This document shows, piece after piece, positions 35,799 to 41,981 of a DNA stretch of 64,000 bases; position 1 is the first letter of the stretch, and each line of letters starts with the position of its first letter. The notes beneath the pieces were generated by a model, which did no database searches, was not told the origin of the DNA, and saw nothing but the letters and a program-made list of their open reading frames with translations. Origin of the DNA: Bdellovibrionales bacterium. Its GTDB lineage: Bacteria > Bdellovibrionota > Bdellovibrionia > Bdellovibrionales > UBA1609. The stretch covers positions 491,097 to 555,096 of the forward strand of contig CBDATD010000001.1 of NCBI GenBank assembly GCA_965199935.1, given 5' to 3'. The position numbers were made by a program, and so were the translations under genes.

Positions 35799-36257
35799 AT
35801 GATCCGCAAAATCCGCTTAAAAGTCAGCTCTGGAAGAGGCGGAAGGGGATGTCTAAGCTTTGCTTCTTCTCGACGTAAAATTCGAGGAGGGCCGGATGGA
35901 GGAAATGGAGGCTCAGGGGGGGACGTATGGATGCGGGTAAATAATAAGAAAACCTCTCTATCTCATTTAAAAACAAATAAAATTTATCAAGCCGGCAATG
36001 GACAGCCTGGAGGGTCTCGACGCAAAACGGGACGCAAAGGAAAAAATTTAACTCTTGAAGTACCTCCTCACACATGGCTCAAAACCAAAAATCTCGAAAT
36101 TTTAATCAGTGAAGAAGAACCTTACCTTCTCCTTAAAGGAGGAAAAGGAGGAAAAGGCAATCATTATTTCAAAAACAGCGTCAACCAGGCTCCCCGCAAA
36201 GTAGGACCATTTGGAAAAACCAAAACTTTAGAAATTAATCTACAGGTGAAAAAATAA
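35799..36257 (+). CDS. Obg N-terminal (glycine-rich Obg-fold) domain only, with no GTPase domain
   Basis: GGRGCLSF..GGPDGGNGGSGGDVW..GGKGGKGN matches the Obg fold. The ORF stops at LEINLQVKK, where the G domain normally begins, and nadD starts 8 nt later. Confidence 0.75.
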   Translation: MIRKIRLKVSSGRGGRGCLSFASSRRKIRGGPDGGNGGSGGDVWMRVNNKKTSLSHLKTNKIYQAGNGQPGGSRRKTGRKGKNLTLEVPPHTWLKTKNLEILISEEEPYLLLKGGKGGKGNHYFKNSVNQAPRKVGPFGKTKTLEINLQVKK

Positions 36258-36265
36258 AACACGAT

Positions 36266-37231
36266 ATGAAAAAAAAAATTGGCATACTTGGGGGCAGTTT
36301 TGATCCTCCTCACAAAGGTCATAGATGGGCTGTTTCAACCTGTCTCAATCAACTAAAGTTGCACTTTCTTTACGTCATTCCATCTTATCAAACCCCTTGT
36401 AAAACCTCTTCTCACACACCCCCTGAGAAACGTCTGGAAATATTAGCAAAAACTCTAAAAGACATTCCTCAAGCTGAAATACTAGATATTGAAATGAAAC
36501 GAAAAGGGGTCAGTTATACAGTGGACACTTTAAATCAACTTTCTCTCGATACAGATGAAGTATATTTAATTATAGGGGAAGATTTGCTGTTTCAATTTCA
36601 CACGTGGAAAAACTTTGAACAAATTATCCAGAAGGTAAATTTAATTGTTTTATTTCATACTGATCTTAAAAAGAAAAACAATTGGCCGGTCGTTTTCCGA
36701 AAATATTTGAATAAATGGGACAAAAATACGGGATCATTCCACACGGGCAGGAAAGTCCATTTGATAAAAAACGACAGCCCCTTTAGAGATATTTCCTCAA
36801 CCCAGATTAGAAACAGACTGAGATTGGCTCTGCCTGTTTCGGATCTCCTGCATCCTTCAGTTTTTTCATTGGTAAAAAAACATTACAAACATTTACAGAA
36901 CAAATCTCAAATTTTTGAAGATATTATCCGTTTTCTCAAAGAAAAGGGAGCTTTGAATCCTCAATTTTTTCAATTTAGAGAAAAAATTTATGAATCTATT
37001 TTAGTCGCTTCAGGATTAAACACCCGGCACGTGCGGTCTTTATCTTCAGAAGTACAAAATTATATTTACAAAATGTATGGAATCTCCCCCCAGCATATCG
37101 AAGGAAACAGCCTCTCTCAGTGGATTGTCTTGGATTATGACTTTCTAATTATCCATATTTTTTATGATTATTTAAGACAATATTATCAATTGGAAGATTT
37201 GTGGCAAAAACACTCTTTTAAAAATAGATAA
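36266..37231 (+). CDS. nadD: Nicotinate-nucleotide adenylyltransferase fused to ribosome silencing factor (NadD-RsfS)
   Basis: The N-terminal roughly 200 aa carry GGSFDPPHKGH and ISSTQIR. The C-terminal roughly 110 aa carry the RsfS pattern IEGNSLSQWIVLDYDFLIIHIF..RQYYQLEDLW. It is a single ORF. Confidence 0.8.
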   Translation: MKKKIGILGGSFDPPHKGHRWAVSTCLNQLKLHFLYVIPSYQTPCKTSSHTPPEKRLEILAKTLKDIPQAEILDIEMKRKGVSYTVDTLNQLSLDTDEVYLIIGEDLLFQFHTWKNFEQIIQKVNLIVLFHTDLKKKNNWPVVFRKYLNKWDKNTGSFHTGRKVHLIKNDSPFRDISSTQIRNRLRLALPVSDLLHPSVFSLVKKHYKHLQNKSQIFEDIIRFLKEKGALNPQFFQFREKIYESILVASGLNTRHVRSLSSEVQNYIYKMYGISPQHIEGNSLSQWIVLDYDFLIIHIFYDYLRQYYQLEDLWQKHSFKNR

Positions 37232-37283
37232 TATCTATTTCAAGCCCCTCTGCAAACAAAAGAGAAAAGCCTACAGCCCTCTT

Positions 37284-37359
37284 TGGCTCAGGTGGAGGGA
37301 CTCGAACCCCCGACAGGGTGGTTAACAGCCACCTGCTCTACCAACTGAGCTACACCTGA
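37284..37359 (-). tRNA. tRNA-Asn (anticodon GTT), CCA encoded
   Basis: Hand-folded cloverleaf of 76 nt: acceptor TCAGGTG/CACCTGA, anticodon loop CTGTTAA, T-loop TTCGAGT. Confidence 0.95.
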
Positions 37360-37471
37360 AAAATCCTTCAAGAATTTAAACAATAGAACTCTTTTATGTC
37401 AATAATACTGTTCTCTTATATTGATTTCAGCATCTATAGAGGATAACTTAAATGACCAGGCTATTTCAAGA

Positions 37472-37558
37472 GGAGAGGTGGCAGAGCGGTTGATTGCACT
37501 GGTCTTGAAAACCAGCAGACCTTCACGGGTCTCGTGAGTTCGAATCTCACCCTCTCCG
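37472..37558 (+). tRNA. tRNA-Ser (anticodon TGA)
   Basis: 87 nt with acceptor GGAGAGG/CCTCTCC, anticodon loop CTTGAAA, a long variable arm and T-arm GTGAGTTCGAATCTCAC. Confidence 0.95.
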
Positions 37559-37756
37559 CACGAAGATATATACTGCGCCTTCAATCCAAATACACGCTGT
37601 TGTTCGTAAAAAATAAGCTGAAAAGACCCTTAAATTAAAGCCTAAACCGGTTGTTTCAATTTTAGGAATCTCTTTTAAACAAGGTTCCGCATCTTTACAA
37701 AACTCCGCACAGCCAACCTGAAATAAAAGCAATGATCCCAGTAAAAAACCCAACAT
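37547..37756 (-). CDS. Hypothetical small lipoprotein-like ORF
   Basis: Signal MLGFLLGSLLLFQVGC, very similar to the signal of the ORF at 2905. Its 3' end overlaps tRNA-Ser by 12 nt on the opposite strand, so the call is uncertain. Confidence 0.3.
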   Translation of the reverse strand: MLGFLLGSLLLFQVGCAEFCKDAEPCLKEIPKIETTGLGFNLRVFSAYFLRTTACIWIEGAVYIFVRRG

Positions 37757-37757
37757 T

Positions 37758-38105
37758 TTAATCCTCTTTATTTTCTAATACTTCCACAACCCCAACATCA
37801 CTGAAAAAAGGCAGGAAAGGGACACCCCAGTTTTTTCTATCCTGTTTTACAGTGAAAAATAAAGTGGTTATTAAAACAAAAATAATGCAGTTAAAAAGGT
37901 ATATGTAAAAGTGACTTCTTTTCTCAAAACCTTTAGTCTTATGACGAAAAATGAATTGCACAATCAAAGCAATGGAAAGTGCAGCGGTTGCAAACCTAAT
38001 ATCCCAATGGATTAAACCCCCTATTACAACCAATCCTAAGAATAATTTTAAAAAAGCTGTTGATGCATATATAAATTCACTTTTTAGTTTGTTAGGTATT
38101 CCCAT
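37758..38105 (-). CDS. Hypothetical 3-TM membrane protein
   Basis: 115 aa with a GGAG SD 9 nt upstream of the ATG. It follows the 58-aa ORF after 10 nt. Confidence 0.5.
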   Translation of the reverse strand: MGIPNKLKSEFIYASTAFLKLFLGLVVIGGLIHWDIRFATAALSIALIVQFIFRHKTKGFEKRSHFYIYLFNCIIFVLITTLFFTVKQDRKNWGVPFLPFFSDVGVVEVLENKED

Positions 38106-38115
38106 TTTTTAACTC

Positions 38116-38292
38116 CTAGAAGGGGACAGCAAACATACAATTACAAGCAAAGACTCCTGTCGCATCCATAAGATTTGAACCAAACTTTTGATCGTTGCGT
38201 ATAGTACGCTCTACATCAGTAATCATATGATTATATGCAATTCTGTTGTCTATTGGATATTGAGAGTGAGAAATTTTATAAAAAAACTTCAT
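38116..38292 (-). CDS. Hypothetical 58-aa peptide (below the ORF-track cutoff)
   Basis: Hand-translated as MKFFYKISHSQYPIDNRIAYNHMITDVERTIRNDQKFGSNLMDATGVFACNCMFAVPF. It is preceded by promoter cassette copy A. Confidence 0.4.
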   Translation of the reverse strand: MKFFYKISHSQYPIDNRIAYNHMITDVERTIRNDQKFGSNLMDATGVFACNCMFAVPF

Positions 38293-38364
38293 TAGCCGGG
38301 ACGGTAGTCCTCTATGATAGTAACTGTCAATATATTTTGAAATAGTGTAAAAAAATTACACTGT
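38293..38364 (-). repeat. Promoter/operator cassette copy A
   Basis: 72 bp, about 88 percent identical to 39323-39392. Contains the palindrome AGTGTAA-N5-TTACACT (38344-38362), TTGACA (38325-38330) and, after 18 nt, TACCGT (38301-38306), then 8 nt to the ATG. Confidence 0.8.
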
Positions 38365-38370
38365 TTTTGA

Positions 38371-38616
38371 CTATTTTAAGAGTTTTATCGGGTTTACCTT
38401 TAAGGCTTTGCTTATCAGTACAAGGGTTTTCAGGCTTATGTTTTTACGATTGCGTTGCTCTATATCCGTGACAGTGCTAAGAGACAGCTTTGTCTTATGG
38501 GAAAGATCAAGCTGTGTGAGTCCTCTCTGTTTCCTGATCCGTTTTACATTATGCTGACGATTGACAGTTTTTTACAGCTTGTCCAGAACGGCCAACATTA
38601 TGAGTATTGTTTTCAT
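38371..38616 (-). pseudogene. XRE-family HTH regulator interrupted by an in-frame TAA at codon 15
   Basis: The ATG at 38616 has an AAGGAGAT SD. The reading is MKTILIMLAVLDKL-TAA-KTVNRQHNVKRIRKQRGLTQLDLSHKTKLSLSTVTDIEQRNRKNISLKTLVLISKALKVNPIKLLK. There is no ATG, GTG or TTG after the stop and before the HTH. Confidence 0.7.
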
Positions 38617-38780
38617 TTCTTATCTCCTTTCTTTTCCTCTATACCAAGATGCTTTTCTATTTTTTTAAGCCTTTTTTGATTTTTTACGTCGTCAAAATAG
38701 CTAAGAAGCCACACAATAATAACAATTAGAAAATGATACTCAAACAACACTCTGAAAATTTCAATTAAACTTTCTTTCAT
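38613..38780 (-). CDS. Hypothetical 55-aa membrane protein
   Basis: MKESLIEIFRVLFEYHFLIVIIVWLLSYF.. It has ATGA overlaps with both the upstream and the downstream genes. Confidence 0.45.
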   Translation of the reverse strand: MKESLIEIFRVLFEYHFLIVIIVWLLSYFDDVKNQKRLKKIEKHLGIEEKKGDKK

Positions 38781-39322
38781 TTTTTTGGATCCGGGGTTTT
38801 GTTTCCACAGAAGGGGTCTCCGGTTACAATCGCACAAAATATTGCAAGCAACGCAAGTAATATTCCAGCTACACCATGAGCGGGACCTGAATCAGGTTCT
38901 GAACCAAATTCGTTTGTAAAATCTTCAAAAGACCCTCCTTCATAACTAAAAACAACTTCATTTGTTGCGTCCTCTATAGTAAAACCATACTGTACCATTT
39001 CAATCACATACTTCCTCATAAGTTCTTTTTTTCCGTAAGTTTTGGAAGGGCCCCCAAGACGCCCACGTCTAAAGTAATTCGGATGTTCTTCTATAATATA
39101 CACCGGTCCCATACGCCCCACAGACCCCTCATAATACAGGTGTATGGTGTTGCTTTTGTTTTCCATTCGGCACACCTGTTTGCTGTCACCACTAAAGGAA
39201 ATACAAGCACCTTTCTCCGGCATAAAATCATTTAAAATAAAACTGTCATTTTGACTTGAGTAAGAATAAGAACTTGAGAGAATAAGCCCGATTGAGAGAA
39301 AAACTTTGAGAATAAATCTCAT
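38777..39322 (-). CDS. Hypothetical secreted protein with a C-terminal TM anchor
   Basis: The ATG at 39322 gives the signal MRFILKVFLSIGLILSSSYS, and a C-terminal helix VAGILLALLAIFCAIV follows. The ORF is open to TTG at 39334. Confidence 0.6.
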   Translation of the reverse strand: MRFILKVFLSIGLILSSSYSYSSQNDSFILNDFMPEKGACISFSGDSKQVCRMENKSNTIHLYYEGSVGRMGPVYIIEEHPNYFRRGRLGGPSKTYGKKELMRKYVIEMVQYGFTIEDATNEVVFSYEGGSFEDFTNEFGSEPDSGPAHGVAGILLALLAIFCAIVTGDPFCGNKTPDPKK

Positions 39323-39392
39323 AATTCGGGACAATAGTCCTCTATGATTTTAAGTGTCAATATATTTTGAAATAGTGTAAAAATTACACTGT
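39323..39392 (-). repeat. Promoter/operator cassette copy B
   Basis: Palindrome AGTGTAA-N3-TTACACT (39374-39390), TTGACA (39355-39360), then 18 nt, TATTGT (39331-39336), then 8 nt to the ATG at 39322. Confidence 0.8.
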
Positions 39393-39466
39393 GTAAAGGA
39401 ATGGCGTGCAAAGAACCCAGAAAAGCCTGCCCTGCCTTTCAGAAACGGCGTTATTATCTCAAAAGA

Positions 39467-39527
39467 ACAGTGTAAATTTTAAATTTTACACTGTGTATTG
39501 ATATTTAATATCATAGAGCCTTATATT
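39467..39527 (+). promoter_or_regulatory. Third palindrome plus sigma-70-like promoter
   Basis: ACAGTGTAAA-N8-TTTACACTGT (39467-39494), TTGATA (39498-39503), then 18 nt, TATATT (39522-39527). The ATCATAGAG block is shared with copies A and B. Confidence 0.6.
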
Positions 39528-39574
39528 TTCCTTGATTGTGAGATTTGTTTTTACAAAGAACAGGGGGAAAAATA

Positions 39575-39940
39575 ATGAAGTATTTTTTTATTTTTATATT
39601 CAGTTTATGTTCTTTCAGTGCGTATTCTCATATAATGGATGAGGGAGTGAGTACAAATTATAGTGGAATGTGGTCAGATACCACTATAAGTGTTGATGAA
39701 AGACGATTTATCCACAATTATCCTGTTTACGGAGCGAGTATAAGTAAAGTGAGAGCATATTTATATTTTATGTTTACAGATTATCTTTTTCATTATCATT
39801 ATATTGATCCCAATACCGATCATAAGCACAGATGGGTTAAAATAAGTGAGGAAGAATATAAATTCTTGGCAATCGAGAATGCACGCTTTTTTGTGAACCA
39901 CTCAAATAGTTTTGGTTCAAAAATAGAAGCTTATTATTGA
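39575..39940 (+). CDS. Hypothetical small secreted protein
   Basis: A GGGGGA SD precedes the ATG at 39575, giving the signal MKYFFIFIFSLCSFSAYS. I recognise no family. Confidence 0.55.
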   Translation: MKYFFIFIFSLCSFSAYSHIMDEGVSTNYSGMWSDTTISVDERRFIHNYPVYGASISKVRAYLYFMFTDYLFHYHYIDPNTDHKHRWVKISEEEYKFLAIENARFFVNHSNSFGSKIEAYY

Positions 39941-40003
39941 ACATAAACCTGAAAACCATTGTACTGATAAGCCGAGCCTTAAAGGTCAACCCCGATAAAA
40001 CTA
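39940..40003 (+). pseudogene. Fragment: 3' end of an XRE gene, an inverted copy of 38381-38442
   Basis: About 58 of 63 nt are identical to the reverse complement of the XRE gene's 3' end. It translates as NINLKTIVLISRALKVNP.., and the homology starts exactly at the stop codon of the preceding ORF. Confidence 0.75.
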
Positions 40004-40020
40004 GATTATTTTCTGAGAGG

Positions 40021-40034
40021 GTGTAAAATTTACA
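40021..40034 (+). promoter_or_regulatory. Fourth, imperfect copy of the palindrome (GTGTAAA-A-TTTACA)
   Basis: It lies in the same position relative to the XRE 3' fragment as the palindrome at 38344 does relative to the XRE gene. Confidence 0.5.
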
Positions 40035-40105
40035 AAAAAAAAGAAAAAACTAGTATTTTTACATCTATGTGTAGTACTCTCACCCTTCAGACAGGAGGTT
40101 TTGTT

Positions 40106-40435
40106 ATGGGCAATGTAAAATACATAATTTTGGCTTTATTCTCACAATTTGCTTTCGCAGGGATAGTTCATCTTGATGATGTGGACCACCCATCGCATGC
40201 AATCGGAGAAACAGCAGTTCATTGTGATCCAAATAACCCCCGGAAGTGTTTAAAAGTGACATCAATTGGAAATAATGAGTACCTCACCCAACCCATCTTT
40301 TACAACGAGACGGAAGCTGTACAAGAAGACTTACAGCAAAAAAACCACCCCATGGACTATGAGCCTTCTAAACTAGAAAATGAACATAGAAAAGGTGCAG
40401 ATAGAAAAGGTGCAGATACATTTTACTTTCAGTAA
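40106..40435 (+). CDS. Hypothetical small secreted protein
   Basis: An AGGAGG SD lies 7 nt upstream of the ATG at 40106, giving the signal MGNVKYIILALFSQFAFAG. There is a tandem RKGAD-RKGAD near the C-terminus. Confidence 0.55.
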   Translation: MGNVKYIILALFSQFAFAGIVHLDDVDHPSHAIGETAVHCDPNNPRKCLKVTSIGNNEYLTQPIFYNETEAVQEDLQQKNHPMDYEPSKLENEHRKGADRKGADTFYFQ

Positions 40436-40508
40436 GATTTAAATTTTATTGAAGGAGAACAATAGCCTTACTGTCAAAATCTATGTAGGATGGGGTTTTT
40501 TGTAGAAA

Positions 40509-40682
40509 ATGAAGATCACTAAAAAGCAACTTTACTTATATGTGAAAATTAATTTTCTTATTCTGTCTCTCTTTGTTGTACTCATGTCTATGTACTCTCT
40601 AAGAAAACAGGGACTGCCCGATTCTGTCACAGAACCTCTTCATTTAAAAAACAAAAGAACTGCAACACTTCAAATCAAATAA
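40509..40682 (+). CDS. Possible 57-aa membrane peptide
   Basis: Hand-translated as MKITKKQLYLYVKINFLILSLFVVLMSMYSLRKQG... No clear SD. Confidence 0.25.
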   Translation: MKITKKQLYLYVKINFLILSLFVVLMSMYSLRKQGLPDSVTEPLHLKNKRTATLQIK

Positions 40683-40703
40683 CATTCGAAATAAGGCTGT
40701 GCG

Positions 40704-41981
40704 TTATGATTTTTTTAGAATGACTTTTTTTCCATCCATATAAGGCCGAATCACTTCAGGAACTGTGACACTTCCGTCTTCATTTTGATAGTTTTCTAAG
40801 ACAGCAATAAGAGTGCGGCCTACAGCCAAACCAGAGCCATTTAAGGTATGCACCAAAGAAACCTTTTGATCTTTCGATTTAAAGCGAATTTTAGCCCTCC
40901 TAGCTTGATAATCCTCGTAATTGGAACAAGAACTAATCTCTCTAAAAACTTTTTGGGAAGGAAGCCAAACTTCTAAATCGTAACACTTGGAGGCTCCAAA
41001 ACCCAAGTCCCCCGTACAAAGATTAATCACTCGATAAGGGAGATTAAGATCTTTTAAAATACCCTCCGCATGAGAAGTTAATTTTTCCAATTGGTCATAA
41101 GAAGAAGAAGGATGTGCAAATGCCACCAACTCCACTTTTGTAAATTGGTGCTGTCGAATCAATCCTTTTGTGTCCTGCCCGTAAGCTCCTGCTTCTGAAC
41201 GAAAACAAGGAGTGTAAGCAGTTAATTGTATTGGCAGTTTTTTCTCCGGCAAAATTTCATTTGCAAAAAAATTAGTAACAGAAACTTCAGCAGTAGGAAT
41301 AAGGTATCCTTCATAATTTGACAGATGAAAAACATCTTCTTTGAATTTAGGAAACTGCCCCGTATGGATTAAAGAAGAATGATTAACAATATAGGGAGTG
41401 CTTAACTCTTCATATCCATTTTTTTTGATGTGTATATCCAGCATATATTGAGCTAAAGCCCGCTCCAGCCAGGCTATCTCTCCCCTCAAGAAGGAAAATC
41501 TAGCTCCCGCTGTTTTAGCCGCTCTTTGAGTGTCAATATGTTGAGGTGCAATTTCCAAATGAGAACGGACAGGAAATGAGAACTGCCGGGGGGTTCCAGC
41601 TGATCTAATCAGCCGGCTGTCTTCACCTTTAAACCCCACAGGCACACTGGAATGACAAACGTTAGGAAGATGAAGAAGGATTTCAGTAATATTTTCTTCA
41701 AGGTTTCTTAATTTTTCTTGGAGAGCAGCTATTTGATCTCCAACAGCTTGAGCTTTCAATAACAATTCTTTTTTTTCATCAAATTGAGATTTCTTCAAAT
41801 CTTTTTCCAAAGATTTCCTTCTAACAATAGATTGATCCATCTGGAAAATAATCTTCTTTCTGGACTGATTGAGTTTTATAACACGATCCATTGAGGATGT
41901 ATCTTCACCCCTATTTTTCAAACTAGTTAAGTATCTATTTTGAAATTCTGGATCTTTTTCATATCGTTTAAGATCAATCAT
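40704..41981 (-). CDS. serS: Seryl-tRNA synthetase
   Basis: N-terminal coiled coil, motif 2 FRSEAGAYGQDTKGLIRQHQFTKVE and motif 3 GSGLAVGRTLIAVLEN. Confidence 0.95.
   Translation of the reverse strand: MIDLKRYEKDPEFQNRYLTSLKNRGEDTSSMDRVIKLNQSRKKIIFQMDQSIVRRKSLEKDLKKSQFDEKKELLLKAQAVGDQIAALQEKLRNLEENITEILLHLPNVCHSSVPVGFKGEDSRLIRSAGTPRQFSFPVRSHLEIAPQHIDTQRAAKTAGARFSFLRGEIAWLERALAQYMLDIHIKKNGYEELSTPYIVNHSSLIHTGQFPKFKEDVFHLSNYEGYLIPTAEVSVTNFFANEILPEKKLPIQLTAYTPCFRSEAGAYGQDTKGLIRQHQFTKVELVAFAHPSSSYDQLEKLTSHAEGILKDLNLPYRVINLCTGDLGFGASKCYDLEVWLPSQKVFREISSCSNYEDYQARRAKIRFKSKDQKVSLVHTLNGSGLAVGRTLIAVLENYQNEDGSVTVPEVIRPYMDGKKVILKKS

Follow-up and report, generated by a model that had tools for sequence, protein, structure and literature searches.

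A putative promoter cassette copied in front of different genes in a small Bdellovibrionales genome

Introduction

Why do two nearby start codons in a small bacterial genome share almost the same 70 bp of upstream DNA? The question is raised by a window of 64,000 nt, the whole stretch of DNA that was analyzed, from a Bdellovibrionales bacterium (GenBank assembly GCA_965199935.1, contig CBDATD010000001.1, positions 491,097 to 555,096 of the forward strand). Two direct repeats on the minus strand of this window, here called P1 and P2, run up to the ATG codons of two open reading frames (ORFs), ORF58 and ORF181. A preliminary description of the sequence proposed that the repeats are copies of one promoter/5′ module placed in front of different cargo genes. 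The reading that we favor, and regard as probable rather than secure, is that P1 and P2 are paralogous copies of a compact, lineage-specific expression cassette in which a promoter and an operator have been copied together. In what follows, coordinates without a prefix are those of the window, and those prefixed C1 or C2 lie elsewhere in the genome.

The P1/P2 repeat

What does the repeat consist of? On the minus strand, P1 (38293-38364) and P2 (39323-39392) are identical in 62 of the 72 columns of a global alignment that contains a single 2-nt gap, and when P2 is compared by BLAST with the full 1.44-Mb genome, P1 is returned at 90% identity (E = 1e-19). These results bear out the pair of direct repeats with one 2-nt indel that had been described, and the proposed layout can be read in both copies: a 17-19-bp dyad, an A/T-rich stretch of 13 nt, TTGACA, an 18-nt spacer, a -10-like TAnnnT hexamer, 8 nt and the start codon. 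In P1, the palindrome ACAGTGTAA-N5-TTACACT (38364-38344) and the A/T-rich 13 nt precede the -35 hexamer TTGACA (38330-38325), a spacer containing ATCATAGAGGAC, the -10-like hexamer TACCGT (38306-38301) and the ATG at 38292. In P2, the corresponding elements are ACAGTGTAA-N3-TTACACT (39392-39374), TTGACA (39360-39355), a spacer that again contains ATCATAGAGGAC, TATTGT (39336-39331) and the ATG at 39322. Within the window, there are exactly two instances of the palindrome AGTGTAA-N(3 or 5)-TTACACT (38344-38362 and 39374-39390), and 100 shuffles produce none. In both copies, the dyad center lies ~60 bp upstream of the ATG, which is taken as the inferred transcription start site. Two metagenome contigs (L027 and L028) have one extra T/A in the A-run at 38350-38356, which would make the P1 dyad spacer 6 nt rather than 5; this may be a sequencing error and not variation in tract length, as these are 2-4x long-read contigs and L028 shows a further four insertions of a single T or A.

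A third, diverged copy in the opposite orientation had also been proposed, and it is recovered here. P3 (39467-39549, plus strand) diverges from P2; its palindrome, ACAGTGTAAAT-N5-ATTTTACACTGT (39467-39494), is closer to the start than in P1 and P2, with dyad arms that are 10 nt apart, and it is followed by the -35 hexamer TTGATA (39498-39503), an 18-nt spacer containing ATCATAGAGCC, the -10 hexamer TATATT (39522-39527) and a start codon that is now GTG (39538). The P3 core (39467-39527) is 71% complementary over 42 nt and is detected by nhmmer at E = 8e-9. In a consensus scan of 37400-40800, three sigma-70-like sites share the top score of 10 of 12, namely P2 and an overlapping pair in the P3 region.

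The similarity between P1 and P2 does not end at the start codons. It runs ~30-36 nt beyond both ATGs, into ORF58 and ORF181, such that an ungapped alignment of 38264-38353 with 39294-39383 is 81% identical over 90 nt and the module extends from -72 to about +36, counted from the ATG. The portion of the repeat inside ORF58 (38264-38292, minus strand) covers its first ~10 codons, which are homologous to the signal-peptide start of ORF181 (MKFFYKISHS in ORF58, MRFILKVFLS in ORF181) before a 1-nt indel breaks the frame. Thus, what the cassette carries includes a start codon along with the opening codons of an ancestral signal peptide. The claim that the coding sequences after the ATGs are unrelated therefore needs to be narrowed: there is no BLASTP similarity among ORF58, ORF181 and ORF121 (the gene that follows P3), but the first ~36 nt of ORF58 and ORF181 are homologous.

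A family of six promoter cores

How widespread is the module? Searches with nhmmer and with a sequence-only covariance model (44-63 bits) find exactly six copies in the genome of what we call family P, defined as the segment from the A/T-rich stretch through the start codon. The six are P1 and P2 (minus strand) and P3 (plus strand) in the window, E (C2:226993-227051, plus strand), G (C2:355841-355902, plus strand) and H (C1:294258-294314, minus strand). In the six-copy alignment, the -35 positions TTG.A and the -10 positions TA are invariant and the final -10 position is always T, while mean column identity is ~72%. The distance from the -10 hexamer to the ATG is 8 nt in P1, P2 and H and 9 nt in G; P3 and E have GTG in place of ATG, 10 and 7 nt past the hexamer, respectively. 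Every copy is oriented towards a downstream ORF. The genome-wide search thus gives no sign that the repeat is scattered without regard to genes, the outcome that would have counted against the proposal.

The genes that follow are diverse. P2 leads directly into a secreted and anchored 181-aa protein, ORF181, whose signal peptide begins exactly at the ATG, and G leads into an orphan ORF of 140 aa that is flanked by dnaJ and a nifU-like gene. P1 precedes the 58-aa ORF58, which is followed by a three-transmembrane protein and then a lipoprotein. The start in P3, GTG-AGA-TTT, is homologous to ATG-AGA-TTT in P2 and begins an upstream ORF (uORF) of 33 codons. This uORF overlaps the start of ORF121, which has its own Shine-Dalgarno (SD) sequence, GGGGGA. 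E opens a 17-codon GTG ORF ahead of a lipoprotein gene. H is followed by an 11-codon ORF, MRDDKVLNASL (C1:294231-294266, minus strand), whose stop codon overlaps, via ATGA, the start of a gene for a 235-aa membrane protein. The cargo proteins of G and H are visibly unrelated to ORF58, ORF181 and ORF121. As a separate observation on H, the 11-codon ORF at its leaderless-type ATG may translationally couple to the membrane-protein gene.

Six genome copies, a copy at a core gene and a seventh copy in a related genome (both described below) uphold the view that a promoter/5′ module has been copied before different cargo, and we consider it likely that a promoter cassette has been propagated in this lineage.

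Spread and capture in this lineage

Is the cassette shared with relatives? DNA and model searches of 25-40 relatives, including three genomes of the same genus, give nothing above noise for family P or for a second family, X, that is described in the next section; the family P covariance model finds nothing above 19 bits in 25 relatives. The three same-genus genomes keep serS-ORF57 and nadD-rsfS with a tRNA-Asn/tRNA-Ser pair, and the stretches between these genes hold different small secreted-protein genes and no XRE-family gene. Since the same-genus loci hold other genes and neither X nor P, the islet at 37560-40500 is species-specific.

Copy H allows a comparison of the same gene with and without the cassette. 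Its cargo, the 235-aa membrane protein, is found in 12 of the 12 relatives searched, with 79%, 76% and 62% identity within the genus. The flanking genes have the same order in the two closest (same-genus) genomes, and the 200-nt spacer is dissimilar to theirs. Within that spacer, copy H is the only recognizable promoter before the core gene. Judged by these comparisons, copy H represents a promoter that was captured, or that replaced another, within this lineage. In G001, a genome of the same genus, TATAAT stands 11 nt ahead of the ATG of the corresponding gene, which lacks an SD sequence.

A diverged relative of the cassette is nevertheless found within the genus. A protein 44% identical to ORF181 (P0005) is encoded on a same-genus contig whose PurQ and GlpX are 79% and 82% identical to those of the window's genome. 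The region upstream of its gene reads AAATATCTTGACA-N17-TAGTAG-N9-GTG-AGA-TTG and is 70% identical to P2 over 115 nt, making it a seventh, diverged copy of P. The gene and its P-type promoter occupy a different chromosomal site, in an insertion of ~1.07 kb (L118:3757-4831; ENA ERZ19489113) between an orf506 homolog and purL, which in the window's genome are separated by just 52 nt; two ~120-nt direct repeats follow the gene. Hence, ORF181-type genes move together with their promoter, and the pairing of the two is probably the source of family P, to judge from the sequences compared.

The same collection of copies bears on whether the module acts at the level of RNA. If it were a 5′ leader transcribed from a promoter farther upstream, GGAC-N4-GTCC or the dyad could form a hairpin that serves as a riboregulator or terminator acting on the ATG. 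Indeed, the GGAC-N4-GTCC hairpin can form in P1 and P2, the dyads are predicted to fold at -5 to -12 kcal/mol, the P3 dyad is flagged as terminator-like on the minus strand, and the TATATT box overlaps the -35 region. However, the conservation of this hairpin, which the preliminary description had stressed, does not extend past P1 and P2: the 4-bp stem is missing from the other four members of family P and from the same-genus copy, with no compensatory changes, and there is no covariation because the stem is identical in P1 and P2. The modules have no Rfam match at E <= 1, the dyad stems are A/U-rich with no U-run after them, and the nearest GAGG ends ~16 nt upstream of the ORF181 ATG, too distant for an SD sequence in a genome where the SD peak lies at 5-10 nt. 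An RNA-level element is thus a very improbable explanation, and the module is better read as a promoter cassette.

A dead regulator and its relics

What has become of the regulator? The P2 operon, ORF181-ORF55-XRE, is joined by ATGA overlaps, and its third gene encodes an XRE-family protein (38371-38616, minus strand) with an HTH_3 domain (PF01381, E = 2.1e-12). The preliminary description spoke of an intact XRE protein; the gene next to the P1 palindrome is a pseudogene. It has an in-frame TAA at codon 15 (38572-38574) and reads MKTILIMLAVLDKL-TAA-KTVNRQ..., with no start codon after the TAA; its close paralogs are otherwise all 5′-truncated, and only one of them is intact (94 aa, C1:946956-947240; 50% identical to the window XRE). 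Similarity to this paralog continues across the TAA, which aligns with Leu, pointing to a single nonsense mutation. The TAA is also present in two independent metagenome assemblies, although these are 99.8-99.9% identical to the window and add no evolutionary depth. Among 185,579 species genomes, the XRE has only generic homologs, with <=50% identity and unrelated context.

Pieces of XRE genes recur elsewhere. Family X comprises the last 13-47 XRE codons, 8 nt and the dyad, and has six strong copies in the genome. Copy B1 (38347-38443, minus strand) is the 3′ end of the window XRE with the P1 palindrome, the XRE stop codon lying 8 nt before the palindrome; the distance from stop to dyad is 8 nt in four of the six copies. 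Copy B2 (39937-40034, plus strand) is a frameshifted XRE 3′ fragment of 18-23 codons directly after the ORF121 stop, and it ends in a degenerate dyad, GGTGTAAAATTTACA (40020-40034), upstream of ORF109. The other copies are at C1:178442-178540, C1:176587-176686, C1:659135-659207 and C1:793925-794023. Each copy overlaps or closely follows the stop codon of the upstream gene and precedes another gene, which begins with a signal peptide in five of six cases. X and P are joined only in P1; P2 and P3 consist of the dyad and P.

The X copies are remains of genes. Five of their eight variable codon columns are silent, including a stop-preserving change from TAG to TGA, and the other three are conservative (N/S, L/I, K/R); the copies therefore diverged as working genes. 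At their 5′ ends, 47, 23, 21 or 13 XRE codons are retained, with one junction common to two copies. The differing ends imply independent truncations, so at least five XRE-operator-cargo cassettes once existed. On this evidence, X consists of the relics of once-complete XRE-cargo cassettes and is not a noncoding mobile repeat, with every XRE of the lineage now dead. A serine-recombinase (resolvase) pseudogene with an internal TAG, accompanied by a 48-aa HTH fragment (C1:656215-656542), lies 2.5 kb from one X copy (copy C) and adjoins a weak X-like match; it is probably a relic of a mobile element that carried cassettes.

Are X and P, then, mainly substrates for cassette shuffling, by homologous or site-specific recombination that diversifies secreted proteins, with any promoter role secondary? 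There are reasons to ask. The ~100-nt X segment, 88-93% identical, stands beside unrelated genes at six sites, and an inverted X pair (53 nt, 91% complementary) surrounds 1.5 kb. The ORF181-type cassette is at different loci in two species, and the same-genus locus holds different secreted-protein genes. In addition, a 58-nt segment is 100% identical between ORF121 (39575-39632, exactly from the ATG through the signal peptide) and a diverged paralog (C1:795294-795351, minus strand), although the two genes have unrelated promoters and encode proteins of only 39% identity, which suggests a recent exchange of 5′ modules by gene conversion limited to the signal-peptide segment. However, no intact recombinase stands beside any cluster: four tyrosine recombinases are encoded elsewhere, and the only serine recombinase is the pseudogene. 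The 5′ boundaries of X vary (13, 21, 23 and 47 codons), as expected from independent deletions rather than a fixed crossover site, the X substitutions are coding-like, and the arrangement is identical in three independent assemblies, with no inversion variants. We therefore consider shuffling an improbable primary role. The inverted copies themselves, at 38390-38442 and 39940-39992, are positioned such that inversion between them would join the 5′ part of the XRE gene to the other 3′ end; no inverted variant is seen in the three assemblies.

The amount of debris raises a simpler alternative, namely that the repeats are leftovers of segmental duplication in a decaying accessory islet, without present function and similar only because they were copied recently. 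The XRE pseudogene and its four truncated paralogs, the ORF58 N-terminus that resembles a frameshifted relic, the gene remnant between P2 and P3, and the resolvase pseudogene in the C1:656 kb cluster are all consistent with decay, as are a P1 -10 hexamer that falls under the threshold of the sigma-70 scan and a genome of 1.44 Mb in a family of mostly 2-4 Mb. What neutral wreckage does not readily explain is the pattern of what has been kept. At a mean column identity of ~72%, the invariant positions of family P (TTG.A, TA and the last T) are those that sigma-70 promoters need, and a start-codon distance of 8-9 nt is kept in four copies as well as in the same-genus copy. Copy H is the only recognizable promoter before a conserved core gene, and ORF181 has an intact signal peptide with no other visible translation signal. 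Functionless remains are thus an unlikely account of the family, and a functional expression cassette is preferred.

The dyad as a candidate operator

If the P copies are promoters, is the dyad their operator? The motif GTGTAA-N3-TTACAC occurs four times in the genome, compared with a mean of 0.17 (largest value 1) for 89 composition-matched permuted palindromes, a 24-fold excess. Two of these sites, at C1:180832 and C2:206823, stand apart from X and P. Both contain the 19-mer AGTGTGTAAATTTTACACT, and each lies ~80 nt upstream of another signal-peptide gene. This pattern fits a transcription-factor site of a small secreted-protein regulon. The window XRE and the intact paralog are similar in the recognition-helix region (LSLSTVTDIEQ against LSISTVAAIEQ). 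Binding of the dyad by an XRE-family protein is a real possibility, at slightly less than even odds. GGGTGTA repeats near an XRE-ImmA gene form a different motif (GGGTGTAAT direct repeats) that is unrelated to the dyad.

Leaderless initiation and a proposed mechanism

How would translation start? ORF181 has no SD motif within 14 nt of its ATG, and the -10 hexamers of P1, P2, G and H lie 8, 8, 9 and 8 nt before the start codon, the geometry of leaderless promoters (a -10 hexamer ~6-9 nt before the start and no SD sequence). We put the case for a leaderless start in these genes at about even.

The proposed mechanism is as follows. Sigma-70 RNA polymerase acting on TTGACA-18-TAnnnT would start at the A of the ATG, or 1-2 nt before it, yielding a leaderless mRNA that needs no SD sequence; this would explain why ORF181 has none in range. 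P2 would drive ORF181, ORF55 and the XRE gene; P1, located 8 nt past the XRE stop, would drive ORF58, ORF115 and ORF69; and P3, diverging from P2, would drive ORF121. The dyad would be the operator of the cassette's own XRE-type dimer, which would autoregulate P2, control P3 and gate P1. With the XRE gene dead, the sites would be either orphaned or served by the intact, 50%-identical paralog at C1:946956-947240, which the loss of the window XRE leaves as the sole remaining close candidate regulator. As the comparisons above show, duplication and recombination have spread the cassette, in the best reading from one islet of orphan genes for secreted proteins to another. A bolder version is that a unit of 45-80 bp, comprising a promoter, a 5′-terminal start codon and a few codons, is a portable, self-sufficient leaderless cassette that is recombined before arbitrary genes, with homogenization of modules diversifying the secreted proteome; expression would then arise by in-frame fusion (ORF181, the 140-aa orphan) or by coupling through a leaderless uORF (MRDDKVLNASL at H). 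We regard this extension as speculative and rather unlikely.

Several observations weigh against the copied promoter-operator. First, the -10 hexamers are weak. Three of six positions in TACCGT and in TACTCT agree with TATAAT, and the same-genus copy has TAGTAG. The 18-nt spacer also exceeds the 17-nt optimum. Second, the P copies are kin by descent, so conservation of the spacer and of the start-codon distance could partly reflect youth rather than selection, and P1 may be decaying, given that ORF58 looks like a frameshifted relic. Third, a dyad at about -60 is in an activator-like position and not that of a classical repressor; its arm spacing is 3, 5 or 10 nt, copies E and G have no dyad, and that of H is only degenerate. 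Fourth, the evidence for promoter activity and for a leaderless start is geometric throughout, and the leaderless geometry is only modestly enriched across the genome, with 50 cases of a strong -10 hexamer 6-9 nt before the first ATG and ~33 expected by our own estimate from the histogram background at 15-54 nt. A shifted-window control shows no sharp genome-wide peak for this geometry. That these genome-wide candidates lack an SD sequence is trivial, since the window for it is taken up by the -10 hexamer, and the enrichment is accordingly not used here as strong support.

Genes of the islet

What do the putative promoters serve? The variable islet begins at the 3′ end of tRNA-Ser(UGA) (37472-37559, plus strand) and is bounded on the other side by serS (40704-41981, minus strand). 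There is no att-like repeat of the tRNA 3′ end at the far side of the islet, where no common 10-mer or longer is found, and an Rfam scan of 37200-40800 at E <= 1 returns only two tRNAs and sub-threshold noise that overlaps them. The genes after P1 (37547-38292, minus strand) are ORF58 (38116-38292), the three-transmembrane ORF115 (37758-38105) and the lipoprotein-like ORF69 (37547-37756). The P2 cargo, ORF181 (38777-39322, minus strand), combines a signal peptide (MRFILKVFLSIGLILSSSYSYS) with a transmembrane anchor at its C-terminus and belongs to an orphan family with three remote homologs among 1.84 billion representative proteins in an exhaustive phmmer search. Next comes ORF55 (38613-38780, minus strand), for a small membrane protein, which overlaps both of its neighbors: the ORF181 stop with its start codon and the XRE start with its stop codon. 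The P3 cargo, ORF121 (39575-39940, plus strand), is a secreted, beta-rich orphan with three paralogs at C1:793-795 kb, and its AlphaFold model (predicted local distance difference test score of 74) has no PDB fold match at E < 0.6. The cargo has no significant match in Pfam, PHROGs or PADLOC that would indicate a function.

Between the P2 and P3 palindromes is the remnant of a small basic ORF (KEWRAKNPEK...; 39393-39466, plus strand). A 58-aa version of this ORF (...KVKEWRAKNPEKLALQRRRYYLKRKE...) is found at C1:659433-659609, and the indel-broken, 74-nt remnant between the dyads is ~90% identical to it. On the tRNA side of the islet, the tRNA-Asn/tRNA-Ser pair (37284-37559) has, with respect to serS and nadD, the opposite orientation to that in the three same-genus genomes (L096-L098). 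A large variable segment lies directly 3′ of tRNA-Ser(UGA) both here and in one of these relatives (G003), which also has a partial nadD duplicate. Nearby, 35799-37231 contains a 152-aa ORF consisting only of an Obg N-terminal domain and a 321-aa ORF that is a NadD-RsfS fusion. The three same-genus genomes conserve both over their whole length (59-81% and 50-74% identity, respectively), and the two ORFs are thus features of the genus and not assembly errors.

Significance

What does the locus add? P1 and P2 make a tidy case of promoter reuse, and no new class of system is involved. What is known of promoter reuse comes largely from statistics over large sets of genomes, and individual cases with a clear before and after are rare. 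This locus supplies one: a single P core stands before six unrelated genes, including a housekeeping gene whose orthologs, in sister species with the same gene order, have a different spacer. If the leaderless start is true, there are two further implications. First, a unit of ~45 bp would supply the starts of both transcription and translation, making promoter capture especially easy. Second, the locus would document how, in a reduced genome, several cassettes have lost every regulator gene of one XRE lineage but have kept their operators and promoters.

Comparison with known systems

How does the cassette compare with systems that have been described before? Lambda cI, transcribed from PRM, is an example of a small XRE-type regulator expressed from a leaderless transcript. 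The C proteins of restriction-modification systems also have leaderless transcripts, and homologs occur with mobile-element genes as well (Sorokin et al. 2009, PMC2632904). C genes are first in their operons, the C-box lies 17-18 nt from the start codon, and the promoters have no clear -35/-10 elements (PMC2632904). PADLOC matches the window XRE to 'Control_protein' at 1.8e-9, and the locus resembles C-protein circuits in having a small HTH_3 regulator, an upstream palindrome and a first operon ATG at the expected transcript start without an SD sequence. It differs in that the XRE gene is third in its operon, the dyad ends 51 nt from the ATG and is not a GACT/AGTC C-box, and the P cassette, unlike C-dependent promoters, has a perfect -35 hexamer. 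Pfam, PADLOC and PHROGs searches detect no restriction-modification domains in the neighboring ORFs.

A conserved 5′ expression cassette attached to a variable mature protein is also a feature of the vlp/vsp lipoprotein genes of Mycoplasma and the upstream homology box loci of Borrelia. The likeness lies in a promoter and signal-peptide start that are kept or homogenized while mature parts diverge or have no relationship, and in small secreted or lipoprotein cargo in variable islets of a small genome. In contrast to those families, there is no sign of phase variation or site-specific inversion here, the cargo is mostly non-homologous, and one P copy would drive a housekeeping membrane protein.

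Miniature repeats that bear promoters include Correia elements, ERIC and REPIN (PMC3575422), which, like family P, are short repeats that bring promoters beside genes. Family P and X differ from these in having no terminal inverted repeats, target-site duplication or uniform length and only six copies, and X is a gene fragment. An assignment as a miniature inverted-repeat transposable element or Correia-like element was therefore rejected: the X and P alignments have no common outer ends or terminal repeats, and their boundaries differ at every site. An integron cassette array with attC sites was also rejected, as no tyrosine recombinase is near any cluster and X is a fragment of a coding gene with variable 5′ ends.

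The closest parallel is with putative mobile promoters, which are similar upstream sequences before unrelated coding sequences within one genome (Matus-Garcia, Nijveen and van Passel 2012; commentary PMC3575422), defined by >=80% identity over >=50 nt at positions -150 to -50 (PMC3575422). P1 and P2, at 90% over 66-68 nt, are within the identity range, the other members of family P being more diverged; there is no associated insertion sequence, and one P copy rewires a conserved gene. With respect to paralogy, ORF58, ORF181 and ORF121 have no BLASTP similarity to each other, yet the first ~36 nt of ORF58 and ORF181 are homologous and the P3 uORF keeps the same codons. Unlike putative mobile promoters, the P module does not fit the -150 to -50 interval, since it reaches from -72 to about +36 and includes the start codon and first codons; some P copies also carry a dyad, the putative operator, and the leaderless geometry would give the starts of both transcription and translation.

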